A program made the translations under genes and the position numbers. A stretch of DNA of 50,428 nucleotides from a virus (lineage: Duplodnaviria; Heunggongvirae; Uroviricota; Caudoviricetes), in the IMG/VR virus record IMGVR_UViG_2909278081_000001. One strand, written 5' to 3'. This document shows, piece after piece, positions 1,432 to 39,354 of the stretch (position 1 is the first letter of the stretch; every line of letters begins with the position of its first letter). The notes below the pieces were generated by a model. It ran no database searches, had not been told where the DNA came from, and saw only the letters and a program-made list of their open reading frames with translations.

Positions 1432-1488
1432 TGGGCTTCATATAAATATGCTCGACATGCTATTAATAATATCCACATAAATAAAACA

Positions 1489-8566: not shown

Positions 8567-8836
8567 TTAAGCCCATGTCCTTACATGCTGATCTGTCGTA
8601 ATGAAAGGCATTAAAGAAGATATGTTTTTACTGCCATCAACAATCCTCATGTTTACGAAAAAACCACCGCGATCAATGCCTGTACATCTTTCGTTTTCTG
8701 GCTCCTCGTAATCGATAATGCAGCCAATAACATCAACAAGAACCCCATTTTCTTCTTCAAGACTGAACAGGCCACTGTCATATACAATTGCGTTAAACTG
8801 TTCTCTGTTATCGAATCGTAATGTTATATCCCGCAT
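8567..8836 (-). CDS. hypothetical protein, 89 aa, translationally coupled to side tail fiber gene
   Basis: Start overlaps the stf stop by 1 nt; acidic; no recognised motif. Confidence 0.45.
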   Translation of the reverse strand: MRDITLRFDNREQFNAIVYDSGLFSLEEENGVLVDVIGCIIDYEEPENERCTGIDRGGFFVNMRIVDGSKNISSLMPFITTDQHVRTWA

Positions 8837-11199
8837 TATACGTATTCCTTAAGCTGCGTATCTGACAATGCTCTGTTCCAGAAACGGAGGTTTTTTATAT
8901 GACCATTAAGGTGTCGTAATCCTGTCGTCGTTTGCCCCCCGATACGAATCACGGCAGCTTCACGAATATATTTCCATACTGTTTTTGTTTCTGTGCTTAT
9001 ATGCTTATTTGCAAATGAGCATGTCATGCCGTCAGCCTTAACCCTGAATCCCATAACGAGATCTCTTACTCCGCATGACTCATATACACGTCGGTTAGCC
9101 CCGCCTATATCGCAATACGAATAACCATCCTGACTAATAGTTCCAGAAGAACCAAACCCCATAATAAATGGGCCCCCGGACTGGTGATTTTCTGAATCAA
9201 TGACACGCGGTGCAGCATTATGAGAAATAAACCAGTTTTTATGGACTTCCACCATGAACGTAAAAGGCATGGTATACATATTTTTCATCAGCGGAAATTT
9301 ACATAAATCTGATGCACGAGTAGCTGGCTCTGTTGTCGTTATGATAAAGGAAGTTGCACAAGCACCATACTCAAATTGCGGGGTGGTTACTTCTATCCAG
9401 TCACCTGTTGCAAAAGACCCCACAGCTCTGTCGGCTGCAATTTGCAACTGCGTACCAACCATTCCCCATTCTGGCAGACATTTCAGGGTTGCCTGAAAAT
9501 ATATCCATCCACTACCTGGATCGATTTCAAAGTTTGCTGTTAATAGCTGGGCATTACCACCCGTAATTTGTAGTTCATGGGTCTGTAATGACAAATAGGC
9601 GTCACAAAGGAAAGTGTATCCTTCCGAGTTATACCGTTCAAAACGGATACGTGCGCGAACATTGAGATCACTTCTTACCCTGAACGACGCGGTAACATAC
9701 GGACCTTTACTGTACTGATCATCGCCAGTCACATCTATGCCTTTATTACCAGCAACTGTGCATATATTTCTCCCTGTTGTCGTTCCTGCTATGTCGCTTC
9801 CTACTGTGAAACGTCCATATTTAAACTCAAATTCATCTGTTGATGATGTTACAGATATACCACCGCTTTTATTCCAGGCATCAGGATTAAAACTATTTAC
9901 GAACATGTTTGTTCGCTGATTCTCTATCAGCAAACCATATTTTTCAAAACGAGGAACGTTATTCCCTGCCACGGTAATATGCCCGGACTTATCAATATAC
10001 GTTGCAGATGAAGCCCGGCTAAATTGGCATATGCCATTAACAGGCATTGTTATTTCATCACTGCCGATGGTTATTGTTTTATAGCCCGGGGCATACCCTG
10101 TTATCGCTTCCAGAGAATCATTCAAGGGTAGCCAGATATCAGGAAGCGGAGGGACAGAAGCAGGATCAGCGGCATCTTCTGCAATCCGGGCTGCATTCTC
10201 TGCTCTTGTTGCGGCTGACGTTGCTTCTGTCTCGCTGGCTGCTGCTTTTGTTTCACTCGTCTTTGCGTTAGTTTCACTGGCTTTTGCAGCTTTTTGGCTA
10301 TTAGCTGCCGCTGTTGCAGAACCGGCCGCCGCGCTCTCGCTTTCAGCTGCTGCAGCCTGGCTGTTTTTCGCCGCAGTTTCACTGGCTTTGGCATTCGTTT
10401 CGCTGGTTTTCGCTGCCGTCTGGCTGGACTTTGCGTTAGTTTCACTCGTCTTCGCTGCTTTCTGACTGTTAGCCGCAGCAGTTGCTGATCCGGCTGCTGA
10501 AGTCGCAGAACCAGCTGCAGCACTCTCGCTTTCGGCTGCTGCATCCTGACTGCTTTTCGCTGCAGTTTCGCTGGCTTTGGCATTCGTTTCGCTGGTTTTC
10601 GCTGCCGTCTGGCTGGACTTTGCGTTGGTTTCGCTCGTCTTTGCGGCTGTCTCGCTGTTTTTCGCGTTGGTTTCTGATTTTTTGGCTGCTGTCGCGGAGT
10701 TTGCCGATGCAGTCTGTGAGGTCGCTGCCGCCTGTGCGCTGTTAGCTGCATTCGTTTCTGAGGTTTTCGCCGCGTTCTTCGATGATGCCGCTGCAGTTTC
10801 GGATTTCTTTGCCGCCGCTGCGCTCTGAGAGGCGGCTTCGGCGTTGCGTGCCGCTTCTTCCACCATTTCCTGAAAACGGCGCAATGCCTCCGGCATGACA
10901 TCATCTTCCGTCATGGCACCGAGAAAATCATTCAGCGTCCCCGGACTGGAACCTTCATAGACGGTAATGGTCCCAACATGTGATGGCTGAGAACCCTCAA
11001 TCCACAGGATGACGCTGTACTGACCATACTCAACGTCCATACTGTAACGCCCGGCTTCATCAGGATTTTCAGATGCCACCGTGTTCACCAGTACCGTGGT
11101 GCTGTTACGCTTTGCCTTCAGTTGAATAGTGCAGTTCTGTATTGGTTTTCCCGCACCATCTTTCAGCACACCTGAGATTTTTACTGCTGCCATATCCAC
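8836..11199 (-). CDS. stf: side tail fiber protein (Stf-like), 787 aa, mosaic
   Basis: N-terminus AVKISGVLKDG...QNCTIQLKA matches lambda Stf; Ala/Ser/Thr-rich repetitive middle; C-terminal half unlike lambda Stf as recalled. Confidence 0.85.
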   Translation of the reverse strand: MDMAAVKISGVLKDGAGKPIQNCTIQLKAKRNSTTVLVNTVASENPDEAGRYSMDVEYGQYSVILWIEGSQPSHVGTITVYEGSSPGTLNDFLGAMTEDDVMPEALRRFQEMVEEAARNAEAASQSAAAAKKSETAAASSKNAAKTSETNAANSAQAAATSQTASANSATAAKKSETNAKNSETAAKTSETNAKSSQTAAKTSETNAKASETAAKSSQDAAAESESAAAGSATSAAGSATAAANSQKAAKTSETNAKSSQTAAKTSETNAKASETAAKNSQAAAAESESAAAGSATAAANSQKAAKASETNAKTSETKAAASETEATSAATRAENAARIAEDAADPASVPPLPDIWLPLNDSLEAITGYAPGYKTITIGSDEITMPVNGICQFSRASSATYIDKSGHITVAGNNVPRFEKYGLLIENQRTNMFVNSFNPDAWNKSGGISVTSSTDEFEFKYGRFTVGSDIAGTTTGRNICTVAGNKGIDVTGDDQYSKGPYVTASFRVRSDLNVRARIRFERYNSEGYTFLCDAYLSLQTHELQITGGNAQLLTANFEIDPGSGWIYFQATLKCLPEWGMVGTQLQIAADRAVGSFATGDWIEVTTPQFEYGACATSFIITTTEPATRASDLCKFPLMKNMYTMPFTFMVEVHKNWFISHNAAPRVIDSENHQSGGPFIMGFGSSGTISQDGYSYCDIGGANRRVYESCGVRDLVMGFRVKADGMTCSFANKHISTETKTVWKYIREAAVIRIGGQTTTGLRHLNGHIKNLRFWNRALSDTQLKEYV
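10250..10640. repeat. tandem duplication of about 190 bp inside stf
   Basis: gcagtttcactggctttggcattcgtttcgctggttttcgctgccgtctggctggactttgcgtt at about 10374 recurs nearly exactly at about 10562; encodes ...TSETNAKSSQTAAKTSETNAKASETAAK... twice. Unit boundaries approximate. Confidence 0.8.
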
Positions 11200-11926: not shown

Positions 11927-14900
11927 TCAACGAATACTGATGCCGGAAGCGGCTTTTTTGGTCACAATCACCGTACAGTCGGTGATATTACCTGCCCATT
12001 GATTGCCTTTATGGAAAACCTTAAACTCCAGAGTGACGCTTCCCCTGCCACTCGGCATATCAATAACCGCACTGTAGCTACCGGGAATGGCCCCTTTAGT
12101 TTCTCTGGATGCGATTAATACACCGTTTTTGCGAACTTCAAAACCATAACCCGTGTATCTTGTACCTCCCGGGTTATTACCACTTCCCGGATCGCTATAC
12201 GCTATTCCGTTAAAGATAATGGGCGGAATAATGATTTGACGGGCAAAGTTATGATCATCGCTGATGGTGACTGTAACCGTCCCGTTTGGCGTTTCCGTGT
12301 TACCCCACGTACCAGCCTGTTTCGGAAATGATTTGGATACAGCTTTAACGAAGTCACCTCTGACCTGAGTCGCCTCCAGCATGCCCTTAATCGTACAGTT
12401 CTGGTTAATCGTGACATTGTTGAGCGTTCCTGAGTTCGCATTCACACTACCACTGATATCCGCATTTTTAGCGGTCAGCTTTCCGTCTGATGTCAGGGAA
12501 AATACCGGAGGACTGCCACCGCTGGTAATGGTGGGGGCTGTCAGGCGCTTCAGGAACACGTCGTTCATGAATATCTGGTTGCCCTGCGCCACAAACATCG
12601 GCGTTTCATTCCCGTTTGCCGGGTCAATAAACGCGATACGGTTAGCGGCAACCAGAAACTGGCTCAGCTTGCCTTCCTCCGTGTCCTCCATGCTGAGGCC
12701 AATACCCGCGACATAATGTTTGCCGTCTTTGGTCTGCTCAATTTTGACGCCCCACATGGCATTCCATTTATCGTTAGCGTCCTTCCACTCTTTCGAAAAC
12801 TCATCCAGTCTGCTGGCGTTATCCTCCGTCAGATCAACTTTTTCCAGCAGCTCTTTACCGAGATGGGATTCGGTTATCTTGCCTTTGAAAAAATCCAGGT
12901 AACCTTCCGCATCATCGCTCGCCCGACCGACGGCCTCCACGAATGCCGATTTGCCAACGGTGTTCACACTGCGGATATAAAAGTAATAATCATGGCCCGG
13001 TTTGATATTGATACTGGCGGCTATCCAGTACAGCGCCGTACCAAGATAGCGGGCTGTGGTTTCAACCTGCCTGATATCGGTAATCCGCTTTTCCGAGAAC
13101 CAGAACTCAAACTGTACCGTCGGGTCATAAACGGCAAGATGCGGCGTGGCGGTTATCTGAAAATAGCCCGGCGTCAGCTCAATCCTCGACGGTGCTGCCG
13201 GTGCGGCAATCCGGAACGATACCGACGCCGGATCGCCCTGCTGCCCCCAGGCATTTGCCGCCCGGACTGTCAGCCTGTAGTTTCCCAGCGCCAGTTGCGT
13301 GAAGCGGTATGTGGTTTCCGTCGTCCGGGCCGTGCTGACCAGCAGCTCACTGCCGTCATCCGCTGTTACGGTCAGACGGAGCAGGAAGCTCACGCCCTTC
13401 ACCACCTTCGGCGTGTCCCAGCGCGCCAGCACCTGATATTCCCCGCTGTCTGCGGTGACTTCGGCGGTCAGGTGCTGCACCGCTGGCGGCGTGACACCAT
13501 TCACCGTGCCGCTCTGGTCGCCGTCAAAGTGCGCCCCGTTATCCACGATGGCTTCTTTTTCCGGTACATGCTGCACGGCAGTGATGGCATACGTGCCGTC
13601 ATCGTTCTCACGGATACTCACACAGCGGAACAGGCGCTGACGCAACGTCGGCAACTTCAGCCCCCACACACTGTATTCTGCAACGCCGTCAGGAACCCGG
13701 TTCACTTTCACCTTAAGTCCGTCGGTGACGGACTGAACCTCCACGCTGACCGGATTACCACTTCCGTCAACCAGGCTTATCAGCGTGGTACCGGAGGATG
13801 GCAGCGTGATTTCACGGTCGAGCGTCAGCGTCCGGGTCTGGCTGTTCACCGCCAGCACGCGACCACCGGTGCTGATACCGGCATAGTCATCATCGCAGAT
13901 TTCAATGACATCGCCCGGTACATGGCGAAGCCCTTCAGCACCCACGCTGAAATCCACGGTCTGCGTCTCCAGCAGTTCCGTTTTAATCAGCCACAGCCCG
14001 GCGCGGTGTGCCTGCCCCCGGCTGGTACAGCCAAAGGCATCCATCTTCGTGACATTACGACCGTAACGGGCAATGGCCTGCGTATCTTCAACAAGCTCTG
14101 TCGCCGTCTCCCAGCCGTTGTTCGGGTCAATCCAGTTCACCTCAACGGCATTATGGCGGTCCTTCAGGGCGCTGAAGCTGTAGCGGAACGGCGCGCCATC
14201 ATCCGGCATCACCACATTACTGCGGTTATAGGTCCACACCTTATCTGATGGTCGGTCCTGCACGAACGTCAGCGTCTGCCCGTTCCATACCGGCATACAG
14301 CGCATCGCCGAGCAGAAATCACTGAGCACATCCCACGCCTTACGCTGCGTGGTCAGGTAGGCATTACAGGTGATGCGCGGCTCCGTGCCGCCAAAACCGT
14401 CCGGCACTGACTGGTCGCAGTACTGGCCGATGACATACAGCGCCCATTTATCCACATCCGCCGCACCAAGACGTTTCCCCATGCCGTAGCGCGGGTGGGT
14501 CAGCATATCCCACAGACACCAGGCCGGGTTGTTGCTGTATGCCGGCTTAAACGTTCCGTCCCAGATACCGCTGTATTGCCGCGTCTGCGGGTTATAGTTC
14601 GACGGCACCTGCAGAATGCGCCCGCGAAGATGATAATTACGGCTCACCTGCTGGCTGCCGAACTGCTCCGAGTCCACCTGCACGCCGACCAGTGCCGTGT
14701 TCGGGTAGCACTGTTTCACATCGATGATTTCGGTGTATGACGACCAGAGCGTTTTGTTCTGCAGCTGGTCTGTGGTGCTGTCCGGCGTCATCCTGCGCAT
14801 CCGGATATTAAACGGGCGCGGCGGCAGGCTACCCACCACCACCGAGGCCAGATACTGCGAGGTGGTTTTGCCCTTAATGGTGATGTCTTTTTCCGTCACC

Positions 14901-15340
14901 CAGCCACCGTTACGTTGTATCTGAACCAGCAGGCGGACTTCCGACGGATTCCTGTCCCCCTTTGAGGTGGTTTCCACCAGTGCCTGCACGCCGAAAGTAA
15001 AACGCAGACGGTCAATGTTTGCCGACGTGATGGTCCGGGTGATCGGCGTGTCATATTTCACTTCCGTACCCAGCACCGTCTCGGATCCGGAGGATTCAAA
15101 ACCCTCCGGCGGTGTCTGCTCCTGCTCACCTGCCCGGAACACCACCGTGACACCGGCGATGTTGGTATTCCCCTCACTGTCCAGCACCGGCGTACTGTTC
15201 AGCAGCACGCTTTTTAATCCATCCACCGGACCTTCTATCGGCCCTTCGCTGATGGCATCGATCACACTCAGTAACTGCGTGGATTTCAGGTTGTCCTTCG
15301 CTTCGCGCGGGGTATGCCCCTTACTGCTGCCTTTACCCAT
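11927..15340 (-). CDS. J: tail tip / host specificity protein J
   Basis: 1137 aa; N-terminus [21 protein letters not shown] matches lambda J; position between lom and I. Confidence 0.95.
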
Positions 15341-15400
15341 TCGTCATGCTCCATAAACGACAAAACCGCCCGCAGGCGGTTTCACATAAAACATTTTGCA

Positions 15401-16072
15401 TCAGCGACCAATCACCACAACCTGACCAGCATCCCCTTCGTCTGCCGTGCTGATCTCCTGAGAAACCACCCGCGACCCCACACGCATTTCACCGTACAGA
15501 ACAGGCAAAACATTGCCCTGGGCAACCATGTTATCCAGTGAGGAGAAATAGGTGTTCTGCTTACCGTTATCCGTTGTCTGTGTGCGGGGAGTTCTGGCTT
15601 TCGGTGCCAGCATCTGAGCCACACCGCCGAGCACCATACTGGCACCGAGAGAAAACAGAATGCCGGTCATACCACCGGCCCCAATGGCTGTCCCCCATGC
15701 TGCAAGGGTGGCTCCGGCGGTAAAGAATGATCCGGCAATGGCGGCTGCCCCCAGGACAATCTGGAATACGCCACCTGACTTGGCCCCGGCGACTCTGGGA
15801 ACGATATGAATCACAGCGCCGTCAGGCAGAGCCTCATGTAACTGCGCCGTTAATCCGGACGTGCTGACATCCTGCCCGGCAATACGTACCTGATACCAGC
15901 CGTCGCTCAGTTTCTGACGAAACGCAGGGAGCTGTGTGGCCAGCGCCCGGATGGCTTCGGCCCCCGTTTTCACACGAAGGTCGATGCGGCGGCCAAATCG
16001 TTGTAAATCCCCGTAAAGGCAGATGCGTGCCATGCCCGGTGACGCCAGAGGGAGTGTGTGCGTCGCTGCCAT
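15401..16072 (-). CDS. I: tail assembly protein I
   Basis: 223 aa, matches lambda gpI as recalled. Confidence 0.95.
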   Translation of the reverse strand: MAATHTLPLASPGMARICLYGDLQRFGRRIDLRVKTGAEAIRALATQLPAFRQKLSDGWYQVRIAGQDVSTSGLTAQLHEALPDGAVIHIVPRVAGAKSGGVFQIVLGAAAIAGSFFTAGATLAAWGTAIGAGGMTGILFSLGASMVLGGVAQMLAPKARTPRTQTTDNGKQNTYFSSLDNMVAQGNVLPVLYGEMRVGSRVVSQEISTADEGDAGQVVVIGR

Positions 16073-16713
16073 TTGTCGGTATACCTCTCTCGTTTGCTCA
16101 GTTGTTCAGGAATATGGTGCAGCAGCTCGCCGTCACCACAGTAAATGGCGGCATGATTCGGCACCGATGAACCAAAACAGCACAGCAGCACATCGCCCGG
16201 CTGCGCCGCTGACAGCGGCACCTGATACAGCCCTGTGGCCTCCAGATTATCCAGATAGAGATTCTGACCGTTACGCCACCAGTCATCCTCACGATGAAAA
16301 TCCGGCATCTCAATCCCCGCCAGATGGTAAGCATCCCGGAACAGCGTGTAACAGTCCGTCACCCCGTGCTCAAAGCGCCGCCCGGTGAGATGCGGCACAC
16401 AGCGGAACTTATGAATCGCCCCCCGGCAGACCAGCCACCACGGCAAATCACTCTGCACCTGCAGTCGCCGGTCGGCCTCACTCAGCCAGGGCAGACCACC
16501 GGGATGGCTGTGCACCAGCGCCACAATCTCACCCTGCATTTCTGCCTGCAGCCAGTCTTCCGGCGACATACGGAAATACGCCTCCGGCTCACCGGAGATA
16601 TTCACGCAGGGGAAATATCTTTCCCCCTCCGGCGTGCTTACCACGAAGCCGCACGACTCCGCTGGCGCACATCGCCGGGCGTGCGCCAGAATCGCTGATT
16701 CTGTCTCTGTCAT
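15970..16713 (-). CDS. K: tail assembly protein K (JAMM/MPN plus NlpC/P60-like)
   Basis: Lambda gpK-like; HSHPGG...SEAD JAMM motif; start boundary uncertain (alternative start at Met49). Confidence 0.85.
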   Translation of the reverse strand: MTETESAILAHARRCAPAESCGFVVSTPEGERYFPCVNISGEPEAYFRMSPEDWLQAEMQGEIVALVHSHPGGLPWLSEADRRLQVQSDLPWWLVCRGAIHKFRCVPHLTGRRFEHGVTDCYTLFRDAYHLAGIEMPDFHREDDWWRNGQNLYLDNLEATGLYQVPLSAAQPGDVLLCCFGSSVPNHAAIYCGDGELLHHIPEQLSKRERYTDKWQRRTHSLWRHRAWHASAFTGIYNDLAAASTFV

Positions 16714-16718
16714 GGGAT

Positions 16719-17417
16719 TTACTGCGAAAGTTTGTTAATGGAAAGGAAGCCGCCAAAGTTGCCGACATTATTGCGGAACTTACAACCGCTCAGGCATTTG
16801 CTGCATTTATCCTTCGTGATATCGGACGTTGGCTGGTCATATTCATCCGCGACCGCCGGACCGTGATAACCGCACTCATCGCCGCGATAGGTCCAGGTGC
16901 AGGTGTTGGCCAGCATGATACGTCCCGGAAAAACAGCGCCGTCCGTTTCCGTCGGCGTGGACAGTACAAAAGAGGCACTCACCGCGCTCAGTTCGCTGCA
17001 CTGCTCAATGCGCCAGCGGCTGATCACCTCCTGCTCCGGATCGGCGTCACTGTTTCCGTTGACGAAGTTCACCGCATCCAGAAAACGGGCGTAAACCTTA
17101 CGCCGGACCACCGTTCCGCCGACCAGACTCTGCAGATCTTCCGCCATCCCGGTGACCATACCGTACAGGTTAGAAACCGTCAGCGTGGGGCGCGTACTGG
17201 TGCCTTTGCCATTCAGTTCAAAACCACTCCCCTGAATGGGATACGGCTGATACTGTCGCCCCTGCCAGGTGACCGGCTCACCTTTTTCGTTCTGCTCATT
17301 ACAGAAAAAATAACGTTCTCCACCGACCTCTGTCAGATCGATTTCCCAGAGCACCACGCTGGCCGACTGCTCCGCACGGGTGCATTCATTCAATGTTTCC
17401 TGCCGGATATCCTGCAT
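16719..17417 (-). CDS. L: minor tail protein L
   Basis: 232 aa, matches lambda gpL (MQDIRQETLNECTRAEQ...). Confidence 0.95.
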   Translation of the reverse strand: MQDIRQETLNECTRAEQSASVVLWEIDLTEVGGERYFFCNEQNEKGEPVTWQGRQYQPYPIQGSGFELNGKGTSTRPTLTVSNLYGMVTGMAEDLQSLVGGTVVRRKVYARFLDAVNFVNGNSDADPEQEVISRWRIEQCSELSAVSASFVLSTPTETDGAVFPGRIMLANTCTWTYRGDECGYHGPAVADEYDQPTSDITKDKCSKCLSGCKFRNNVGNFGGFLSINKLSQ

Positions 17418-17746
17418 CAGTTCACCACCTGTTCAAACTCTGCGCTGAACTCAACACGCAGCATACTGACCCGCGACGACCATTTTGCGCAGGTCACCTT
17501 TATCTGCCGCCACTCATAAGGCGGCGTCCACAGAAAGGATTTCCAGCCACCGTGCTCAGCCAGAAACGACTCCAGCGCCGTGGCCTCCCAACGGGGAACA
17601 GAAAGCGTCACGCTGTACGTTTTCAGGTCGGCATTCAGCCCGGCAGGCGCTCGCTGGGAATAGCCATCACCAAAGCGCACCTTTCTTACAGAAGGGGCCG
17701 AAGCCACATCCATACCGGGTTTCACTTTCCAGCGGAAGGTTTTCAT
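17417..17746 (-). CDS. M: minor tail protein M
   Basis: 109 aa, matches lambda gpM (MKTFRWKVKPGMD...). Confidence 0.95.
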   Translation of the reverse strand: MKTFRWKVKPGMDVASAPSVRKVRFGDGYSQRAPAGLNADLKTYSVTLSVPRWEATALESFLAEHGGWKSFLWTPPYEWRQIKVTCAKWSSRVSMLRVEFSAEFEQVVN

Positions 17747-20304
17747 CGTCCACCTCCGGAGAACAGGCCACCATCACGCATCTGTGTCTGAATTTCATCA
17801 CGGGCACCCTTGCGGGCCATGTCATACACCGCCTTCAGAGCAGCCGGACCTATCTGCCCGTTCGTGCCGTCGTTGTTAATCACCACATGGTTATTCTGCT
17901 CAAACGTCCCGGACGCCTGCGTCCGGCTGTCTGCCATGCTGCCCGGTGTACCGACATAACCGCCGGTGGCATAGCCGCGCATCAGCCGGTAAAGATTCCC
18001 CACGCCAATCCGGCTGGTTGCCTCCTTCGTGAAGACAAACTCACCACGGTGAACAATCCCCGCTGGCTCATATTTGCCGCCGGTTCCCGTAAATCCTCCG
18101 GTTGCAAAATGGAATTTCGCCGCAGCGGCCTGAATGGCTGTACCGCCTGACGCGGATGCGCCGCCACCAACAGCCCCGCCAATGGCGCTGCCGATACTCC
18201 CGACAATCCCCACCATTGCCTGCTTAAGCAGAATTTCTGTCATCATGGACAGCACGGAACGGGTGAAGCTGCGCCAGTTCTGCTCACTGCCGGTCAGCAT
18301 CGCCGCCATATTCTGTGCAATACCATCAAAGGTCTGCGTGGCTGCACTTTTTACCTGCGACATACTGTCCGTGGCGCTCTCTTCCCACTCACTCCAGCCG
18401 GACTTCAGGCCTGCCATCCAGTTCCCGCGAAGCTGGTCTTCAGCCGCCCAGGTCTTTTTCTGCTCTGACATGACGTTATTCAGCGCCAGCGGATTATCGC
18501 CATACTGTTCCTTCAGGCGCTGTTCCGTGGCTTCCCGTTCTGCCTGCCGGTCAGTCAGCCCCCGGCTTTTCGCATCAATGGCGGCCCGTTTTGCCCGTTG
18601 CTGCTGTGCGAATTTATCCGCCTGCTGCGCCAGCGCGTTCAGGCGCTCCTGATACGTAACCTTGTCGCCAAGTGCAGCCAGCTGGCGTTTGTACTCCAGC
18701 GTCTCATCTTTATGCGCCAGCAGGGATTTCTCCTGTGCAGACAGCTGGCGACGTTGCGCCGCCTCCTCCAGTACCGCGAACTGACTCTCCGCCTTCCACA
18801 AATCCCGGCGCTGCTGGCTGATTTTCTCATTTGCTCCGGCATGCTTCTCCAGCGTCCGGAGTTCTGCCTGAAGCGTCAGCAGGGCAGCATGAGCACTGTC
18901 TTCCTGACGATCGCCCGCAGACACCTTCACGCCGGACTGTTTCGGCTTTTTCAGCGTCGCTTCATAATCCTTTTTCGCCGCCGCCATCAGCGTGTTGTAA
19001 TCCGCCTGCAGGATTTTCCCGTCTTTCAGTGCCTTGGTCAGTTCTTCCTGACGGGCGGTATATTTCTCCAGCGGCGTCTGCAGCCGTTCGTAAGCCTTCT
19101 GCGCCTCTTCGGTATATTTCAGCCGTGACGCTTCGGTATCGCTCTGCTGCTGCGCATTTTTGTCCTGTTGAGTCTGCTGCTCAGCCTTCTTTCGGGCGGC
19201 TTCAAGCGCAAGACGGGCCTTTTCACGATCATCCCAGTAACGCGCCCGCGCTTCATCGTTAACAAAATAATCATCCTTGCGCAGATTCCAGATGTCGTCT
19301 GCTTTCTTAAACGCAGCCTCTGCCTTAATCAGCATCTCCTGCGCGGTATCAGGACGACCAATATCCAGCACCGCATCCCACATGGATTTGAATGCCCGCG
19401 CAGTCCTGTCTGCCCAGGTCTCCAGCGTGCCCATGTTCTCTTTCAGGCGGCGGGTCTGGTCATCAAACCCTTTCGTTGCGGCCTCGTTCGCCGCCTGCAA
19501 TGCCCCGGCTTCATCGCCGGAACGCTGCAACTGAGCAACATACGCAATCTGCTCCGCCGTCACGTTATGGAACTGGCGTGCCATCGCCGTCAGCCCCGAC
19601 GTCGGGTCTGTGGTCAGCTTCCCGAAGGCTTCAGCGACCTTGTCCACCTCCACGCCGGATGCAGAGGAGAAACGCGCCACACTCTGGCTGATGGACGCAA
19701 TCTGAGCCTCACCGCTTACCCCCGCCTTAACCAGTGCGCTGAGTGACTCGCTGGTCTGGTTAAACGTCAGCCCTGCCGCCTGCCCGACTCTGGACAGGAC
19801 CAGCATACGATCTGCCGTCAGACCCGCCTGATTGCCGGAAAGGACCAGCGTTTTGTTGAAATCGGACAGGGTTGAGTTGCCCTGATACCAGGCATACGCC
19901 AGCGCACCGGTCGCCACCGCCAGCGAGGTGGCCCCCACCATCGGCAGGGTGATCGCACCGGCAAGCCCCCTGAACATGGGGATCATCCCGCCGAAGGAGT
20001 CCTTCACCTGCCCCCCCTGTTGCAGCAGGATCAGCCACGGACTTTGCCCGCCTGCAAGCTGCGTGGCCACGTCGGTGAACTGTGCAGGCAGCATACGCAT
20101 GGCGGCTTTATACTGCCCGACGGAAATCCCCGCTTTCTGTGCAGCCAGCGCCTGTCGGCTCAGCGACTGTTCAACGACTGCCGCTGTTTTTTTCGCATCA
20201 CTTTCCGTACCGGAAAAATGACGCCTGACTCTGGCCATCTGCTCGTCAAATCTGGCCGCATCCAGACTCAAATCAACGACCAGATCGCCTACCGGTTCAG
20301 CCAT
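17743..20304 (-). CDS. H: tail tape measure protein H
   Basis: 853 aa, matches lambda gpH. Confidence 0.95.
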   Translation of the reverse strand: MAEPVGDLVVDLSLDAARFDEQMARVRRHFSGTESDAKKTAAVVEQSLSRQALAAQKAGISVGQYKAAMRMLPAQFTDVATQLAGGQSPWLILLQQGGQVKDSFGGMIPMFRGLAGAITLPMVGATSLAVATGALAYAWYQGNSTLSDFNKTLVLSGNQAGLTADRMLVLSRVGQAAGLTFNQTSESLSALVKAGVSGEAQIASISQSVARFSSASGVEVDKVAEAFGKLTTDPTSGLTAMARQFHNVTAEQIAYVAQLQRSGDEAGALQAANEAATKGFDDQTRRLKENMGTLETWADRTARAFKSMWDAVLDIGRPDTAQEMLIKAEAAFKKADDIWNLRKDDYFVNDEARARYWDDREKARLALEAARKKAEQQTQQDKNAQQQSDTEASRLKYTEEAQKAYERLQTPLEKYTARQEELTKALKDGKILQADYNTLMAAAKKDYEATLKKPKQSGVKVSAGDRQEDSAHAALLTLQAELRTLEKHAGANEKISQQRRDLWKAESQFAVLEEAAQRRQLSAQEKSLLAHKDETLEYKRQLAALGDKVTYQERLNALAQQADKFAQQQRAKRAAIDAKSRGLTDRQAEREATEQRLKEQYGDNPLALNNVMSEQKKTWAAEDQLRGNWMAGLKSGWSEWEESATDSMSQVKSAATQTFDGIAQNMAAMLTGSEQNWRSFTRSVLSMMTEILLKQAMVGIVGSIGSAIGGAVGGGASASGGTAIQAAAAKFHFATGGFTGTGGKYEPAGIVHRGEFVFTKEATSRIGVGNLYRLMRGYATGGYVGTPGSMADSRTQASGTFEQNNHVVINNDGTNGQIGPAALKAVYDMARKGARDEIQTQMRDGGLFSGGGR

Positions 20305-20737
20305 ACCGGACTCCTCCTGCGATCCCTTCTGATACTGTCATCAGCATTACGTCATCCTCCGTCATGTCCGCCACATCCGGGGAAGCGGGGATAACTTCAT
20401 TCCCGTCCGGGCCAAAGCGGACACCTCCGGCAAGCCCTGCCGCTTTCTGCATCAGCACATCATCTTCAGGCTCTTCGTCAGCCTCGCGCCGGTTCAGCAG
20501 ACTGAAATCCAGCGGATGCATATCCGGATCGCTGAAAAACAGGCTGAGCACGGTGTACGTCAGCCCGGAAAAGTGCATATCCAGCAGAACATCATGAAAA
20601 TAATGGGTACTGTAAAAGCGGTGCCAGTCGGCATACTCCGTGGATGACATCCCGGCAAGCATGGCACGCCAGTCGGGTCGCCCCATCTCACGCGCCAGTT
20701 TCAGGGCAAAACTCAGCTCACCGTCGAACACTTTCCC
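20297..20737 (-). CDS. T: T segment of tail assembly chaperone GT (expressed as G-T fusion by programmed -1 frameshift)
   Basis: ORF in the -1 frame overlapping the end of G; slippery heptamer GGGAAAG at the overlap. Confidence 0.8.
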   Translation of the reverse strand, partial: GKVFDGELSFALKLAREMGRPDWRAMLAGMSSTEYADWHRFYSTHYFHDVLLDMHFSGLTYTVLSLFFSDPDMHPLDFSLLNRREADEEPEDDVLMQKAAGLAGGVRFGPDGNEVIPASPDVADMTEDDVMLMTVSEGIAGGVRYG

Positions 20738-21135
20738 GCAGAAACAGGCTCTGCGGGCCCGGCGTCCTCTGTCTGTTCAGGGGCATTATTCACCACAAAC
20801 TCATACATACCAGACAGCCGGTACACCACGTTTTCAGCATGAGAAATTGCCTCCGTGGGCCAGGTGGTAAGCACTTCCTGCTCAATCTGTTTAACGGCTT
20901 CATTCATGGACGGCATCTGCGTCTTCTGCGGATGGTTATGCCACAGGGACATCGCCACCAGAAACGCGCCGGTTCTGATGGCGTCTTCCACAGTAAACTT
21001 CCGGTTGCTGTCTGACTCCGCCTGTTCTGCCTGCCGTTTCATCAGGGCGAGATGCTCAATGCGCTGCAGGGCTGACAGTTCAGAAAGCGTGACGGTCACA
21101 CCGTTATGTTCAAATGATTCGGTTTTCAGGAACAT
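20713..21135 (-). CDS. G: tail assembly chaperone G
   Basis: 140 aa, lambda gpG-like, ends ...GKCSTVS. Confidence 0.95.
   Translation of the reverse strand: MFLKTESFEHNGVTVTLSELSALQRIEHLALMKRQAEQAESDSNRKFTVEDAIRTGAFLVAMSLWHNHPQKTQMPSMNEAVKQIEQEVLTTWPTEAISHAENVVYRLSGMYEFVVNNAPEQTEDAGPAEPVSAGKCSTVS
20731..20737 (-). other. programmed -1 ribosomal frameshift slippery site (G to GT)
   Basis: Plus-strand ctttccc, i.e. GGGAAAG on the coding strand, within the last codons of G as in lambda. Confidence 0.8.
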
Positions 21136-21150
21136 CGCTGACTCTCCGGA

Positions 21151-21891
21151 TTAACTGGCGGTGACGGTAATTTCTGCAACCGCAGCAAACTCACCATTAC
21201 CGGATACAACCGGAATGTTGACCTTGCCTGCAGCAACGCCGTTCACGGTGATGGTCATACCACTGACCGACACGGTGGCTTTTGTTTTATCCGCAGACAC
21301 CGCACGAAAGCTCTTGTCGGTTACGCCCTCCGGCTGGAAGGCCACGGTCAGCGTGGTGCTCTGCCCTTTCACCACCGAGGTGCTGGCAGGCGTCACGGTC
21401 ATGCCGGTTGCCGCTGTTACCGTGCTGCGATCTTCTGCCATCGACGGACGTCCCACATTGGTGACTTTCACCGTGCGGGTGATCACTTCCTTCGCCGTCA
21501 CCGCCTTACCGATACTGCTGACCCAGCCACGGAACACATCGACCGTGCCGTTCGGGAAGCGGATTTTATAGGCACGGGTATCGCCTTCATTAAACCACGC
21601 CAGCAGCGCCTGCTGCCCCTGCTCTCCGGGCATCCACGCCAGCGTGAAGCTGGTATCTCCGGCAGATTTCTGCCCCTGCCTGGTCGCAGTCCAGTCTGCA
21701 TCTTCATCATCGAGATAGCTGTCGTCATAGGACTCAGCGGTCAGTTCGCCGGGCGTCAGGTCTTTAACTTTTGCCAGACGCGACCAGTCAACGTCTGAAA
21801 GCGGATTCGCATAAGGGTCACCGCTCCCCTTATAAACCCACAGGGTGGTCCCGGCACCTTTCACCGGCATTGTAGGATTTGGTACAGGCAT
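21151..21891 (-). CDS. V: major tail protein V
   Basis: Start set at [16 protein letters not shown] (as in lambda gpV); the supplied ORF extends 10 codons further upstream. Confidence 0.95.
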
Positions 21892-21898
21892 AGCGTCC

Positions 21899-22294
21899 TC
21901 ACATTTCATAGGTAATGACATAAGTCAGATCGGCTGAACTCCACAGGCCCGCATCATCGTCGCGCCGGTAGTCATAGCCGCTGGCCACCATACTGGTGAT
22001 CAAATCTGACAGTGCCGGGATATCGCTCATCACCGGATAAATCCGGGACTCCATCCACGCATCCAGCTCTGAATCCGGCACCTGAGCAGGCAGGAAAACT
22101 TCGATATGCAGCTCCGCCTGCCAGGTATCGCTGTCCAGCTCTTCGCCCGTGTATTCAGCGCCGGTGAGATAAACGGCAACTGCCGGAAAATCCGCCTCAT
22201 CAAAAACAGCGGGGCGACCATCAAAAAACGTCGCCCGGGTGTCATGCTTCTCCAGTGCATCCAGTACGGCTGCACGGAGTTCAGTATGTTTCAT
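21899..22294 (-). CDS. U: tail terminator protein U
   Basis: 131 aa, matches lambda gpU. Confidence 0.95.
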
Positions 22295-22868
22295 CGCTTT
22301 ATTACCATCCTCAGTTGATGCTGCAGCGCATAGCCCAGCTCTTTCGGAAGACGTTCACGCCGTATCCGCTCAATATTTTGTTTAAACGCCGTGGTCAGCG
22401 GCACCGCCATCGGGATTTTCACCACATCAATGGGGTAACGGTTTTTCCCGGCCACACGCTGCATGACATGCCACCGGCCATTTTTCAGTTGCTGAATAAA
22501 CGCGCCGGGAATACGACGGTTACCCACCACAAGCACGCTGCCGCCACCTTTCAGGGATGAACGCTGCCCCTTTTTACGACGCCTGCGGCGCGAAAGGACA
22601 ACCCGCGCATTACCCAGCTTGATTACGGGCAAATCCCCCGGTTAACTTTGATTCTGGCCTGCGGATTTTTGACCGTGGCCCTTTTCAGCCTGGCCCTTTC
22701 CTTTACCAGTTTCCGGCGTACCTTTGTCTCACGGGCAACCTGTGACGCCGACTGCGATATCGCGGATGAAGCAACGCGGTTAATGGCCATTGCGGCGGCA
22801 CCAGGCACCGCCGTTTTGCTGATACGGCTGAGGTTTTCAACGGCCTGCTCAAGACCTTTTATGGCCAT
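22291..22868 (-). pseudogene. Z: tail completion protein Z, split by a 1-nt frameshift in a C5/G5 homopolymer
   Basis: Two abutting ORFs (81 aa MAIKGLEQAVENL...KVNRGICP* and 113 aa ...PVIKLGNARVV...) together span the length I recall for lambda gpZ (about 192 aa); frames join if one G is added at 22635..22639. Confidence 0.75.
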
Positions 22869-22879
22869 ACATCCCCCTT

Positions 22880-23233
22880 TCAGCGGCGACGGTTAACGGC
22901 AGGCGGTACGCCCCGTCCAAGCCAGAGATGACAGCTTCCGCCATCATCCGTCGAAATCCGGTCTATCCAGAAGTTTTCCTCACCGATGGTCAGCGTGTCG
23001 CCGCGCCGCAGCTGCCGCACATCATCAGTCCGGACAAACAGGGACGGGCTGGAGCCTTCAACGCGCACGCCCTGTCCGGCATAGCTGATATTTTCAGGGT
23101 CATCAAAAACACCACGTATTACTGCGCCGGACTGCTCACCGGATGTCATGGTGGCTGACGTTCCCATGTACCCGCGTATCGTTTCATCGGCGCGGGCAAT
23201 GGCAGCATCGAACAGGTTATCGAAATCAGCCAC
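22880..23233 (-). CDS. FII: head-tail connector protein FII
   Basis: 117 aa, matches lambda gpFII. Confidence 0.95.
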   Translation of the reverse strand: MADFDNLFDAAIARADETIRGYMGTSATMTSGEQSGAVIRGVFDDPENISYAGQGVRVEGSSPSLFVRTDDVRQLRRGDTLTIGEENFWIDRISTDDGGSCHLWLGRGVPPAVNRRR

Positions 23234-23244
23234 AGCGCCTCCCG

Positions 23245-23643
23245 TTATTGCATTCTGGCCAGGCCACGTTCTGTCATTTCGGCTGCCACACCGGCAGAGA
23301 CACGAAACGCCGTTCCCGGCAGCACAAATGCCACAGGTTCATCCCGCGTGGCGTGAAGTGCATCAGTATGCAGCTTCACCAGTGCCACGACCGTGACCAG
23401 TTCAGACGTATCCAGAATCACGGTATCCGGCTGCGCTGATCCCACCTCATTTTCATGTCCGGTCAGCACATTTTCCCAGCTGAGAGGGGTGTCCTGACCG
23501 GCAGTTTCATCCGTGTCATCAAGCTCCTCTTCCAGCTCTGCCACACGGAGCACCAGTTCTTCTTTCGTCCCCGTCAGGCTAACATCACGGTTCAGTTGCT
23601 CACCCAGCACCTGAAGACGGGCAATCAGTTCATCTTTCGTCAT
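23245..23643 (-). CDS. FI: DNA packaging protein FI
   Basis: Start set at MTKDELIARL (lambda gpFI-like). Confidence 0.9.
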   Translation of the reverse strand: MTKDELIARLQVLGEQLNRDVSLTGTKEELVLRVAELEEELDDTDETAGQDTPLSWENVLTGHENEVGSAQPDTVILDTSELVTVVALVKLHTDALHATRDEPVAFVLPGTAFRVSAGVAAEMTERGLARMQ

Positions 23644-23684
23644 GGACTCCTCCACAAAGAGAAAATGGCCCCGAAGGGCCATGA

Positions 23685-24710
23685 TTACGCCAGTTGTACG
23701 GACACGAACGCATCAGGGTCAGCCAGCAGCATCAGCGGTGCTGACTGAATCATGGTGAACTCACGCGCCGGATCGCCGGTGGTCACCCAGTTTTTCGGGT
23801 AGCGGGCAGAAGCGTTAATACCTTCGCGCTGTGCGTCCGCATCCTGAATGCAGCCATAGGTGCGCAGACCGCGTGCCTGAGTGTTCCCCAGCACCATCGT
23901 GTTGTCCGGAAGGAAGTTCTTTTTGACGTCGTTTTCCACGTACTGTCCGGAATACACGACGATCGCCGTATCGCCATACATCCCCTTATAGGACACCGCT
24001 TCGCCCAGGTCTTTTACCGCTGTCTCCAGCTCGGAATTAGAGCCGCGACGGGTATCCAGCTTCTCCTTGACGGCTTTGAAGGAACGGAACAGCGCCCAGC
24101 CTTTCGGATCGAACACGATGATATTCACCACACCGCTGGCGTTCAGCGCGTAGGCTTCGATATCGTCGGTCGGGTCATACGTGGACTTGTCACGCTTGCT
24201 CCACTCCGTGCCGCCGGACTGCGTGATGTTATTCTCCTCACTGCGGCCCATATCCACCTCAACCGGATCGAAGGCTTCACCGGTCATGGTGTATTTGCCC
24301 TTAAGCACGGCAGAAACTGCCTGCATCTCTTCGACCTGAGCAATGGCCAGCTCTTCGTCACGCATGTTCTGCATGATGATGCGACGGCGGCGGTAAGCCG
24401 GGTCCGCCAGATTCTGCGGATCTTCATCCGGCAGGCGACGCAGGGTCATCTGCGGATTCACTTCATGCTTCGGCTTGACATATCCCGGCGTAAATTCAGA
24501 GGTGGAGCCGCCACGGGAACGGATAACCTCACCGGAAACAATCGGCGAAACGTACAGCGCCATGTTTACCAGTCCCGGAATTTGTGAGAGATAGACTTTC
24601 TCCGTGGTGAAGGGATAGCTCTCACGGAAAAAGAGACGCAGAAACAGCGGATCAAACTTAAATTTCTGCTCATTTGCCGCCAGCAGTTGGGCGGTTGTGT
24701 ACATCGACAT
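23685..24710 (-). CDS. E: major capsid protein E
   Basis: Start set at MSMYTTAQLL; near-identical to lambda gpE. Confidence 0.95.
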   Translation of the reverse strand: MSMYTTAQLLAANEQKFKFDPLFLRLFFRESYPFTTEKVYLSQIPGLVNMALYVSPIVSGEVIRSRGGSTSEFTPGYVKPKHEVNPQMTLRRLPDEDPQNLADPAYRRRRIIMQNMRDEELAIAQVEEMQAVSAVLKGKYTMTGEAFDPVEVDMGRSEENNITQSGGTEWSKRDKSTYDPTDDIEAYALNASGVVNIIVFDPKGWALFRSFKAVKEKLDTRRGSNSELETAVKDLGEAVSYKGMYGDTAIVVYSGQYVENDVKKNFLPDNTMVLGNTQARGLRTYGCIQDADAQREGINASARYPKNWVTTGDPAREFTMIQSAPLMLLADPDAFVSVQLA

Positions 24711-24765
24711 AAAAAAATCCCGTAAAAAAAGCCGCACAGGCGGCCTTTAGTGATGAAGGGTAAAG

Positions 24766-25098
24766 TTAAACGATGCTGATTGCCGTTCCGGCAAACGCGG
24801 TCCGTTTTTTCGTCTCGTCGCTGGCAGCCTCCGGCCAGAGCACATCCTCATAACGGAACGTGCCGGACTTGTAGAACGTCAGCGTGGTGCTGGTCTGGTC
24901 AGCAGCAACCGCAAGAATGCCAACGGCAGCACCGTCGGTGGTGCCATCCCACGCAACCAGCTTACGGCTGGAGGTGTCCAGCATCAGCGGGGTCATTGCA
25001 GGCGCTTTCGCACTCAATCCGCCGGGCGCGGTTGCGGTATGAGCCGGGTCACTGTTGCCCTGCGGCTGGTAGTGGGTAAAGGTTTCTTTGCTCGTCAT
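24766..25098 (-). CDS. D: capsid decoration protein D
   Basis: Start set at [11 protein letters not shown]; near-identical to lambda gpD. Confidence 0.95.
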
Positions 25099-25107
25099 AA
25101 ACATCCC

Positions 25108-26407
25108 TTACACTGGTGTGTTCAGCAAATCGTTAACGGCATCAGATGCCGGGTTACCTGCAGCCAGCGGTGCCGGTGCCCCCTGCATCAGACGATCCAG
25201 CGCAGTGTCACTGCGCGCCTGTGCACTCTGTGGTGCTGCGGCCAGAATGCGGCGGGCCGTTTTCACGGTCATACCGGGGGTTTCTGCCAGCACGCGTGCC
25301 TGTTCTTCGCGTCCGTGAGCCTCCTCACAGTTGAGGATCCCCATAATGCGGCTGTTTTCTGCCGCAACCGCTGCGGTGATCTGCGCGTTCACGTCCGGCT
25401 GCGCCGCGCTGGCGTTCTCGCCCTCCGTCGCTGGCACCACGTCAGTAACGTCAGCCTGCGAAGCAGTGGCTGAAACAGTTGTTGATTGAGCCTCTTTGGT
25501 CATTCGCCCTCCTGAGAGACGGGATTTACGTGCATCCAGTGCATCACGCATGACGGTGATCGCATCGGTGCTGTTAACAAGTTCATCAGCCAGTCCGGCA
25601 TCAATGGCCTCCTGACCGCTGTACACTGCAGCCTCGGTATCCAGCACAGCCTGCACGGACAGGCCGGTATATGCCGACACCTTCTGCGCAAACATCTGGC
25701 GGGTTGCGTCCATCCGGGACTGCAGTGTCTCCCGGACGTCATCCGGAAGATGGCTGTAGGGGTTGCCATCCACCTTATGGCTGCCGCTGTAAATCAGCGT
25801 GATTTCCACACCCTGTTTCTCCAGCGCAGCACCGTAATTACTGTGAGCCATCATGACGCCGATGGAGCCTGTCCGGGCGGTCTGCGTGACCAGACGCCGG
25901 GAGGCGGCACTGGCAAGCAACTGACCTGCACTGCAGTTCATGTCGTTGGCAAGCGCCCATACCGGTTTTATGTCACGCACACGGGCGATGATGTCAGCGC
26001 AGTCAAATGCCCCCGCCACCATCCCGCCGGGCGTGTCCATATCGAGCAGAATGCCGTCCACCATCGGGTCGCTGGCAGCCTGTTGCAGACGGGCGATAAT
26101 GCCGTTGTAACCGGTCATCCCCGAATACGGCTGCAGCGCCCGCGTCCGACTGACCAGCGTGCCGGACACCGGCAGCACGGCGATGCCGTTCATGACCTGA
26201 TAACTGCGGGCCTGTCGTGGTCCGTCATCATCAACGGATAACGCCAGCGCCTCGGGTGCCTCTCCGGCAGTCAGGCTGTCGCCGGATACCGCATCCGTCA
26301 GGCGGCTGATCCCAAGCTGGCCTGCAAGCGCACAAAAGAAAACCCGCGCATAGGCGGGTTCAAGCATCAGCGGCTCATTAAAGGCCATACTGGCAATATG
26401 CGGGAGA

Positions 26408-26427
<20 letters not shown>
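25108..26427 (-). CDS. C: capsid protease/scaffold C (with nested in-frame Nu3 scaffold)
   Basis: Lambda gpC-like (VTAELRNLPHIASMAFNEPLM...); homologous start codon here appears to be GTG; overlaps the end of B by 20 nt. Confidence 0.9.
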
Positions 26428-30108
<3,681 letters not shown>

Positions 30109-30134
<26 letters not shown>

Positions 30135-30654
30135 TCAGCAACCCCGGTATCAGTTCATCCAGCGCGGCTGCTTTGTTCATGGCTTTGATGATATCCCGTT
30201 TCAGGAAATCAACATGTCGGTTTTCCAGTTCCGGAAAACGCCGCTGCACCGACAGGGGGAGCCCGTCGAGAATACTGGCAATTTCACCTGCGATCCGCGA
30301 CAACACGAAAGTACAGAATGCGGTTTCCACCACTTCAGCGGAGTCTCTGGCATTCTTCAGTTCCTGTGCGTCGGCCTGCGCACGCGTAAGTCGATGGCGT
30401 TCGTACTCAATAGTTCCTGGCTGGAGATCTGCCTCGCTGGCCTGCCGCAGTTCTTCAACCTCCCGGCGCAGCTTTTCGTTCTCAATTTCAGAATCCCTTT
30501 CGGCATACCATTTTATGACGGCGGCAGAGTCATAAAGCACCTCATTACCCTTGCCACCGCCTCGCAGAACGGGCATTCCCTGTTCCTGCCAGTTCTGAAT
30601 GGTACGGATACTCGCACCGAAAATGTCAGCCAGCTGCTTTTTGTTGACTTCCAT
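30109..30654 (-). CDS. Nu1: terminase small subunit Nu1
   Basis: 181 aa, MEVNKKQLADIFGASIRTIQNWQEQGMP..., lambda Nu1. Confidence 0.95.
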
Positions 30655-30831
30655 TGTTCATTCCACGGACAAAAACAGAGAAAGGAAACGACAGAGGCCA
30701 AAAAGCTCGCTTTCAGCACCTGTCGTTTCCTTTCTTTTCAGAGGGTATTTTAAATAAAAACATTAAGTTATGACGAAGAAGAACGGAAACGCCTTAAACC
30801 GGAAAATTTTCATAAATAGCGAAAACCCGCG

Positions 30832-30843
30832 AGGTCGCCGCCC
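30832..30843. other. cosN cohesive-end site, inside a cos region (cosB/cosQ about 30660..30880)
   Basis: Plus-strand aggtcgccgccc is the reverse complement of the lambda 12-nt cohesive end GGGCGGCGACCT; flanks match recalled lambda left and right end sequences. Confidence 0.9.
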
Positions 30844-31277
30844 CGTAACCTGTCGGATCGCCGGAAAGGACCCGTTGGCCGTTCTGGTCTACTTCGTAAT
30901 GGGATTTAATAGCTGAACGACAAAAGTCTTGCGACCACAGTCACACAGACCTGAATACACGTCCTGTTTCTTCCACCCCCGCACAGGACTGGCGAGCATG
31001 AGGGACACCCCGCGAACCATAAACGCGGTAAAAACCCGGTGTGCATCGTTTTTGATTATTCCCGCACACTCACGCAGAAGGAATTCCCCGTCGGGCTACG
31101 GTCATGGTTAATGCGGGAATACGGCGACGATACAGCGCATAATGTGTCAGGCTTGAATACCTTTATCGAATCCCGGTAACGAATTCTCCTGACGTTCCAG
31201 TCAGGTGATGATATGCATGGTGAGATTCAGATATGAAAAAGCCCCGCTAAAAGCGAGGCCATAAATCACTTAATATC

Positions 31278-35779: not shown

Positions 35780-36823
35780 ATGAAAATTAACAAGATATTA
35801 TCATCTGCAACACTATTGTATGGTATGTCAATGGCCATGTCGGTCGGGAGTTGTGCAACACCTGTCCAGACTAATCTTCCTGGTTACACCCCGGGTGCAG
35901 ATATCATTAGTGTTTCACCCACCAGAAACCAGGTCGATCTCATTGGTGATGTTGTTTATTCCCAGATAAAAGGAACTCGTTCTGTCAGACAGCTTCACAT
36001 GTCAGTTCTTGTCCCGCGAACAAATGATTTAAAACCAGCCATTATTTATTATCCCGGCGGCGGATTCATGTCTTCTGAACATGACAAATTTATTGAAATG
36101 AGAATGGCTCTGGCTGAAGCTGGTTTTGTTGTGGCCGCTGTAGAATACAGAACAATTCCTGATACATTTCCAGCACCAGTTGAGGATGGGAAAGCTGCAA
36201 TACGTTACTTGAGAGAACATGCCAGCGATTATGGGATTGATCCTCAAAGAATCGGAGTTCTGGGTGACTCTGCCGGTGGATGGCTTGCCCAGATGATGGG
36301 AACTACAAATGGTGACAAAACCTTTAATAAAGGTGACTTTCTTCAGCAATCAGCAGATGTTCAGGCTGTTGCCACACTTTATGGGATTTCTGACTTGTTG
36401 AATATTGGCGAGGGGTTCCCTGAATCAGTGCAGGAGGTTCATCGATCTCCTGCCGTAACCGAAGCCTTAATGATCAATGGCCCTGCATTCAGAAGTTTTG
36501 CGGGAGCCCCCATAACAGCGTCAAAAGAAAAAGCGCTAAACGCCAGTCCAATCGGACATATGAAAGGAGTAAAACCCCCATTTCTTATTATGCATGGTAG
36601 CAAAGACACTCTGGTTTCACCTGAGCAAAGCGCCAAACTATTCAGGATGTTGAAGAAGAACGGCGATAACGCTGAGTACGTTCTGGTAGAAGGGGCTGAG
36701 CATGGCGATAATACATGGTATCAGCCAATTATTATAAACAGAGTTGTTGAGTGGTTTACTAAAAACCTGGGAACCCCCATAAAAACCGCTACCCAACAAC
36801 AAAAAACAAACGCTGACCTGTAA
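35780..36823 (+). CDS. lipoprotein alpha/beta-hydrolase (esterase/lipase family), cargo gene
   Basis: Signal peptide with lipobox (SVGSC), oxyanion-hole YYPGGGF, nucleophile elbow GDSAGG, C-terminal GAEHGD; only plus-strand gene in the minus-strand early-right operon. Confidence 0.8.
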   Translation: MKINKILSSATLLYGMSMAMSVGSCATPVQTNLPGYTPGADIISVSPTRNQVDLIGDVVYSQIKGTRSVRQLHMSVLVPRTNDLKPAIIYYPGGGFMSSEHDKFIEMRMALAEAGFVVAAVEYRTIPDTFPAPVEDGKAAIRYLREHASDYGIDPQRIGVLGDSAGGWLAQMMGTTNGDKTFNKGDFLQQSADVQAVATLYGISDLLNIGEGFPESVQEVHRSPAVTEALMINGPAFRSFAGAPITASKEKALNASPIGHMKGVKPPFLIMHGSKDTLVSPEQSAKLFRMLKKNGDNAEYVLVEGAEHGDNTWYQPIIINRVVEWFTKNLGTPIKTATQQQKTNADL

Positions 36824-38699: not shown

Positions 38700-38954
38700 G
38701 GTGACACCTGCTAAAGTATGCTTTTATAAACCTTAGTGGTGAGATATGATTTTTGTTTAATTTTTATTTAAAAAGACAATTAAGGTCACATTATCTTGAA
38801 TATACAACAATAATCGTATTGCAATTTTCTTACACCATAATCTTGAAAGCACAAAAGAATGAATAAAAACTAAAGACATTAACAAAAAGCATAAAACGAG
38901 GCCCATATAAATATACGAGCCTCCATATTTTAGTCGTTTAAAAACAAATTATTT

Positions 38955-39287
38955 TTAATGTGGTGTGCTTCGTGACAATAAATTAATAACCAACACACCG
39001 GCACAAATCAACATCATGCCTATAATGGCTGGCAGGTCCAACCGTTGGCCGAAAAATCCCCATGATAGTAAGCTAATCAGGACAATACCGACTCCTGACC
39101 AGATAGCATAAGCAATCCCTGTAGGAATATAAGCCAGCGTCTGAGCTAATAACCAGAATGATGCACAATAACAAATAATTGTACCAACAGATGGCCATAA
39201 CCGTGTAAAACCTTCTGAAAACTTCATTAAGGTTGTACCAATGACCTCTGCAAGTATTGCACCACCAAGATAAATATAAGGATTCAT
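38955..39287 (-). CDS. emrE: small multidrug resistance efflux protein EmrE
   Basis: From Met19 of the supplied ORF: MNPYIYLGGAILAEVIGTTLMKFSEGF... 110 aa, matches E. coli EmrE. Confidence 0.9.
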   Translation of the reverse strand: MNPYIYLGGAILAEVIGTTLMKFSEGFTRLWPSVGTIICYCASFWLLAQTLAYIPTGIAYAIWSGVGIVLISLLSWGFFGQRLDLPAIIGMMLICAGVLVINLLSRSTPH

Positions 39288-39354
39288 AGCATATTCTTTC
39301 CTGTTCAAACTGGAGAGAATTGTACTACAGTTTGAACTCAACTCACCTGTTTCA

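Follow-up and report, generated by a model that had tools for sequence, protein, structure and literature searches.

Tail gene Z of a lambda-like prophage, which encodes the tail completion protein gpZ, is split into two reading frames at a run of five G residues that has six members in phage lambda. We propose that the missing G probably reflects under-calling of a G/C homopolymer in the assembly consensus, which would make the split Z an assembly artefact. The prophage is contained in a 50,428-nucleotide stretch of DNA (IMG/VR record IMGVR_UViG_2909278081_000001), which is called the window in the following. The artefact is favored because the window carries two homopolymer deletions and zero substitutions, and both deletions are absent from otherwise identical sequences. 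In the biological DNA, the prophage would then have the usual G6 run and encode gpZ as an intact protein of 192 amino acids, one G having been dropped from the Z run by a consensus error, most often an error from long reads. That both deletions are technical rather than biological is the most likely interpretation of the comparisons described below.

The two reading frames of gene Z

Gene Z is encoded on the minus strand, where the coding sequence around the frameshift reads ...AAA GTT AAC CGG GGG ATT TGC CCG TAA. Alignments and in-silico repair place the frameshift site at the G5 run, 22639..22635 (–), corresponding to a plus-strand C5 at 22635-22639. Upstream of it, ORF1 (22868..22623, –), assigned from the ORF list, Pfam and tblastn, encodes the N-terminal part of Z with 81 amino acids ending in VNRGICP: residues 1-78 of gpZ are followed by three out-of-frame residues (ICP) and a TAA stop codon at 22625..22623. 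The C-terminal part is encoded by ORF2 (22632..22291, –), assigned from Pfam and tblastn, with 113 amino acids counted from the first possible start, a TTG at 22632. It comprises gpZ residues 80-192, is 100% identical to lambda and overlaps ORF1 by 10 nt, and its stop codon overlaps the start of gene U (ATGA).

The two ORFs match complementary parts of the Pfam family PF06763 (Minor_tail_Z, 190 positions), ORF1 covering model positions 1-76 (E 1.3e-28) and ORF2 positions 79-190 of 190 (E 2e-47), which goes far beyond chance and identifies them as two halves of one gene. The whole model is thus matched by both ORFs together, while the single uninterrupted ORF of about 190 amino acids that characterizes the family is split in the window. 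A tblastn search against lambda Z aligned ORF1 with residues 1-81 and ORF2 with residues 78-192 at 100% identity. At the DNA level, Z and its flanks (761 nt) share 99.2% identity with lambda (J02459), with a few substitutions and a sole gap, where lambda has G6 and the window G5. Insertion of one G in silico results in a 192-aa product that agrees with lambda gpZ in 192/192 residues, indicating a coding sequence without decay. Since ORF2 lies in the –1 frame relative to ORF1, an added G and a –1 slip on the run both restore the sequence ...NRGDLPV.... A preliminary description of this DNA had assigned the two ORFs jointly to a lambda gpZ-like protein, and the Pfam matches and the repaired product bear this out; its statement that the first ORF ends at the G5 run (plus-strand C5 at 22635..22639) and that one added G joins the frames agrees with both the coordinates and the in-silico repair.

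Lambda gene Z (gpZ, PF06763, UniProt P03731) occupies the same position in the order FII-Z-U-V and is nearly identical in DNA sequence; the window differs from it in carrying G5 instead of G6 and, with it, an ORF split into 81 and 113 amino acids. The head-tail joining gene FII (22880..23233, –; PF05354) is located directly upstream and the tail terminator gene U (21899..22294, –; PF06141, E 7.9e-62) directly downstream of Z, and both are intact. Z therefore lies where a gpZ gene is expected, between FII and U and upstream of the tube gene V.

Positions 12371-30843 of the window align collinearly with lambda 18474-1, with 98.2% identity and three gaps, and Z is the only frameshifting indel across these 18.5 kb of head and tail genes. 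At the two other gaps (lambda positions 139 and 14266, a difference of one base each) the J02459 record, not the window, is the outlier: the state of the window was found in 10/11 other loci fetched for position 139 and in 26/26 for position 14266. We found no published note on these lambda reference differences in the literature, and a resequenced lambda record looked reference-guided. The lambda morphogenesis proteins from Nu1 to J were all matched over their full length at 88-100% identity, J to within its last residue, and Z alone is split. Annotation of the early region via the closest RefSeq relative revealed integrase, excisionase, exo/bet/gam, repressor, O, P, Q and lysis genes, and cos is present in the element. 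A 217-bp copy of the icd 3′ end (92% identity) at 1481-1697 suggests the att duplicate expected of an icd-integrating phage, that is, the attR of the prophage. Full-length morphogenesis genes, integrase, immunity, replication and lysis functions, cos and the att duplicate are in line with the otherwise intact-looking prophage of the preliminary description.

Some further features of the element were noticed on the way. A weaker, 52-bp copy of the icd 3′ end further out (613-664) suggests the remnant of another icd-integrated element beside the prophage, and window positions 1-1480, with 33% GC, may fall outside the prophage. Past the tail fibre genes, an AT-rich region (33-36% GC) contains an ORF of 1484 amino acids (2198-6652, –), which is named Avs2 (AVAST type 2 anti-phage protein) in RefSeq relatives and represents a defence gene carried as prophage cargo. 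The stf-like side tail fibre gene (8836-11199, –) contains internal direct repeats of ∼190 bp with ∼80% identity at 10223-10659, which surfaced as secondary self-hits and are rich in Ala, Ser, Thr and Glu in the protein. In the nin region (37173-39341, –, and 35780-36823, +), a large serine recombinase (ybcK-like, 508 aa), an EmrE-like SMR transporter and an alpha/beta hydrolase form a gene set that recalls the cryptic prophage DLP12.

Identical sister copies and a second private deletion

Sister copies of the prophage were reached with lineage-specific anchor proteins, namely J, FI, terminase A and the ybcK recombinase, the latter giving access to the last part of the window; the Dam-like protein and the integrase were too common as anchors and did not return the sister contig. 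One copy (L139, NCBI GCA_949767905.1) agrees with window positions 1927-25339 along 23,414 bp, with 0 mismatches and a single gap, which is the Z run: it is G6 in this assembly, and Z is called as 192 amino acids. Contig 52 of the Logan assembly of run ERR8650827 matches positions 18210-40133 and 27174-48699, again with 0 mismatches and with two gaps only, one at the Z run (G6) and one at 31008-31011, where it carries C5 and the window C4. L139 and the Logan contig may stem from one isolate and are therefore maybe not independent. In the otherwise identical copies L139, L147 and L155, Z is uninterrupted and encodes 192 amino acids. Together, the sister copies cover window positions 1927-48699 (46.8 kb, 93% of the window), within which the window has no private substitutions; positions 1-1926 and 48700-50428 are without an identical comparator.

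The only private differences of the window in these 46.8 kb are two single-base deletions, both in plus-strand C runs (C6 to C5 and C5 to C4). The second one, at 31008-31011 (+), is a C4 in the window and a C5 in five related loci from four other assemblies. As revealed by comparing the L155 translation with the three window frames, it breaks a small ORF (30998-31179, +; 60 aa in relatives, MRDTPANHKRGKNP...) after codon 5; this ORF sits between cos and the lysis genes. Four further close relatives have the longer run at every site they cover. Two of them (L156 and L158, 4-18 substitutions relative to the window) show it at both sites, and L157 (23 substitutions) at 31008-31011, its 15.4 kb ending at window position 24692 and thus not extending to the Z run. 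The comparison of homopolymer length in related prophages that the preliminary description had suggested thus yields a six-base run and an intact 192-aa Z in identical copies. An intact Z was also the observation it had named as speaking against a split gene; this is nearly what we found, but in sister assemblies and not in reads of the same isolate.

These results reproduce the pattern expected of a homopolymer error. The change is one base in length and lies inside a homopolymer (G6 to G5), it is absent from other assemblies of the same sequence (L139, the Logan contig, L156 and L158 all have G6), and it is accompanied by another private homopolymer indel, at 31008-31011, and by 0 private substitutions in 46.8 kb. 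Long-read-only assemblies show the same kind of error, namely single-base deletions in G/C runs without substitutions, which create apparent pseudogenes that are absent from other assemblies. In contrast to such assemblies, the window has only two events in ∼47 kb, and its longer runs are unaffected: a C7 run (20011-20017), three C6 runs and an A9 run (43086-43094) are each as long as in the sister assemblies. If they are errors, the two deletions are the residue of a largely accurate consensus.

Accession numbers are an indirect indication in favor of the artefact. In a GenBank genome, they run from J (AXO85093) to U (AXO85101) and FI (AXO85103), so that one number remains for FII and Z has none. 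In a TPA assembly of this prophage, the numbers between J (HCK2553121) and FI (HCK2553133) include exactly one for Z. Judged from this numbering only, Z is presumably annotated as a pseudogene in the AXO85093-AXO85103 genome, from which the window was probably cut.

Two other sites with length differences were seen along the early region. The 5′ part of gam (45470-45541) has a one-base insertion relative to lambda at window position 45538, and only a short Gam ORF of 98 amino acids (45552-45848) is open; because this state is common to RefSeq relatives and the Logan contig, the insertion is a trait of the lineage and not an error. Just downstream of the repressor, the A9 tract at 43086-43094 falls into codons 4-7 of a SIR2_2 gene (43075-44682, +). 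The tract is A9 in the Logan sister contig and A10 in the closest RefSeq relative (L128), where the annotated start is an ATA codon; the difference could be a homopolymer error in L128 or mark a tract of variable length with which a defence gene begins.

Run-length alleles in public sequences and the origin of the split

We determined how often the length of the Z run changes in public data. In the exact 71-nt context, G5 was present in 3/2241 matching records from 5,426 complete RefSeq E. coli genomes and G7 in a single RefSeq E. coli record. Among 112 IMG/VR contigs, the Z run was G6 in 110, G5 in one and G7 in one, so that the off states G5 and G7 each account for about 0.1-1%. The 81-aa fragment is recorded in exact form for 122 contigs; among contigs in which both the 81-aa and the 113-aa fragment are exact, identity to the window is at most 98.4%. 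The best matches to the window in RefSeq complete E. coli genomes reach only 96-98% identity, so the window does not stem from this collection, and the exact G5 pattern had no match in species-representative genomes.

Many of these G5 alleles come from error-rich sequences. Among the 14 long G5 loci that were fetched, each aligned over at least 6 kb, nine have 8-44 additional frameshifting indels in the part collinear with lambda, indicating that sequencing error often yields the G5 allele. The three RefSeq carriers comprise one prophage truncated after U, one in an assembly that has 15 frameshifting indels within 6 kb, and strain A27, which is clean apart from Z; they have different Z haplotypes, which rules out shared descent of G5 among them. 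G5 and G7 alleles also occur in short contigs with short-read-assembler names (L135, L136, L137) and in otherwise clean prophages (A27 and L015), and we conclude from these cases that real slippage at the Z run happens in nature. On the evidence of these records, the Z run is a recurrent site of length change, much of which, but not all, results from sequencing error.

The preliminary description had left the choice between a homopolymer error and a real inactivating mutation; this description holds, with the error favored by the G6 run of the identical sister copies. That the change from G6 to G5 is instead a real, very recent slipped-strand deletion, leaving a Z-null prophage, we regard as clearly less likely. 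Induction would then produce heads and tails that assemble into normal-looking, mostly non-infectious particles, and rare revertants would arise when replication slippage restores G6. The allele does stand in the sequence as given, and the occurrence of G5 and G7 on different Z haplotypes in clean prophages and short-read-style contigs counts against the artefact, as do the C7, three C6 and A9 runs of the window, which are not shortened and argue that under-calling was not systematic. Lambda particles without gpZ are reported to look normal but to be mostly non-infectious, an effect attributed to a misplaced DNA end at the head-tail junction (PMC11099176, PMC11784142). A real deletion would be expected to cause the same phenotype as the Z-defective amber mutants of lambda, that is, a very low infectivity (PMC11099176, PMC11784142), with the difference that a homopolymer frameshift can revert by slippage and is not a nonsense mutation. 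There is a precedent for a real and stably carried single-base frameshift in a lambda tail gene, since a one-base change in stf deprived laboratory lambda of its side tail fibres (PMC10721106, PMC12617516); the stf change, however, is fixed in its lineage and confirmed by many independent sequences, whereas the Z change is private to one assembly. A real deletion further demands that, after diverging from the sister copies, the prophage acquired two independent indels and zero substitutions in 46.8 kb. Substitutions are several times more frequent than indels in E. coli mutation spectra, which makes two indels without a substitution unlikely unless they arose in a mismatch-repair mutator. Nor is there any other sign of decay, the repaired protein being that of lambda and the neighboring genes all being intact. 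The split Z is thus most likely an artefact and otherwise an ordinary, very recent mutation; neither would be novel.

It is very improbable that the G5 run is functional, be it by allowing synthesis of gpZ through –1 ribosomal slippage, with tRNA-Gly re-pairing from GGG to GGG, or by serving as an on/off switch of infectivity. If CGG GGG A were read with a –1 shift, the product would be exactly the wild-type NRGDLPV, the public data contain shorter as well as longer run variants, and gpZ is a minor virion protein (PMC10721106), found in virions by mass spectrometry and not located in cryo-EM maps (PMC10721106, PMC12617516), all of which would suit such a mechanism. The same tail operon even contains a programmed –1 frameshift, that of lambda G-T, which has the same shift direction as Z would need and whose slippery site GGGAAAG is intact in the window (20737..20731). 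In contrast to the G-T site, the Z site has no slippery heptamer, its shifted state is not conserved, and it has no distinctive structure. Instead of the canonical X XXY YYZ, the sequence is C CGG GGG A, in which only GGG can re-pair in the –1 frame, and the next codon, AUU, is a common one. A stretch of 101 nt spanning the run and its downstream sequence folds no better than its shuffles (z = –0.91), no Shine-Dalgarno-like motif was found upstream of the run, in AAAGTTAACC, and wild-type lambda, where no shift is required, has the same flanking sequence. Few public sequences show the shifted state (3/2241 RefSeq records, 1/112 IMG/VR contigs), and the identical sister prophages lack it. Heptamer, stimulatory structure or Shine-Dalgarno motif, and a conserved shifted arrangement, which together mark programmed –1 sites, are thus all lacking, and we rejected programmed frameshifting at Z on the rarity of the allele and the fold z score. 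As for a switch, a tract of 5-6 bases is short for a contingency locus, which has a long tract with both states common, unlike the Z run.

A related proposal, to which we attach hardly any probability, is that G5 is real and the G run of Z acts as a mutational or translational leak point, providing a little full-length gpZ by –1 slippage or reverting frequently. If this were true, the prophage would be conditionally and not permanently defective, and G5 and G7 would recur in unrelated prophages because an on/off state of infectivity is tolerated. Production of a split gpZ as two fragments, with re-initiation at the TTG at 22632, was also considered and is unnecessary given the evidence from the sister copies.

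Consequences for the prophage

Should the deletion be real after all, it would be an ordinary and revertible loss of function with a phenotype already known from lambda genetics, and a lysogen carrying G5 would release mostly dead particles along with rare G6 revertants. Returning to the artefact, which we prefer, its main effect is on annotation: taken at face value, the split causes the prophage to be scored as defective, with Z as a pseudogene. A practical check for a suspect homopolymer frameshift of this kind is to compare it with exact-match sister assemblies and to look for other private homopolymer indels that are not accompanied by substitutions. The prophage itself is probably complete and inducible, a lambda-like phage with the defence genes Avs2 and SIR2.
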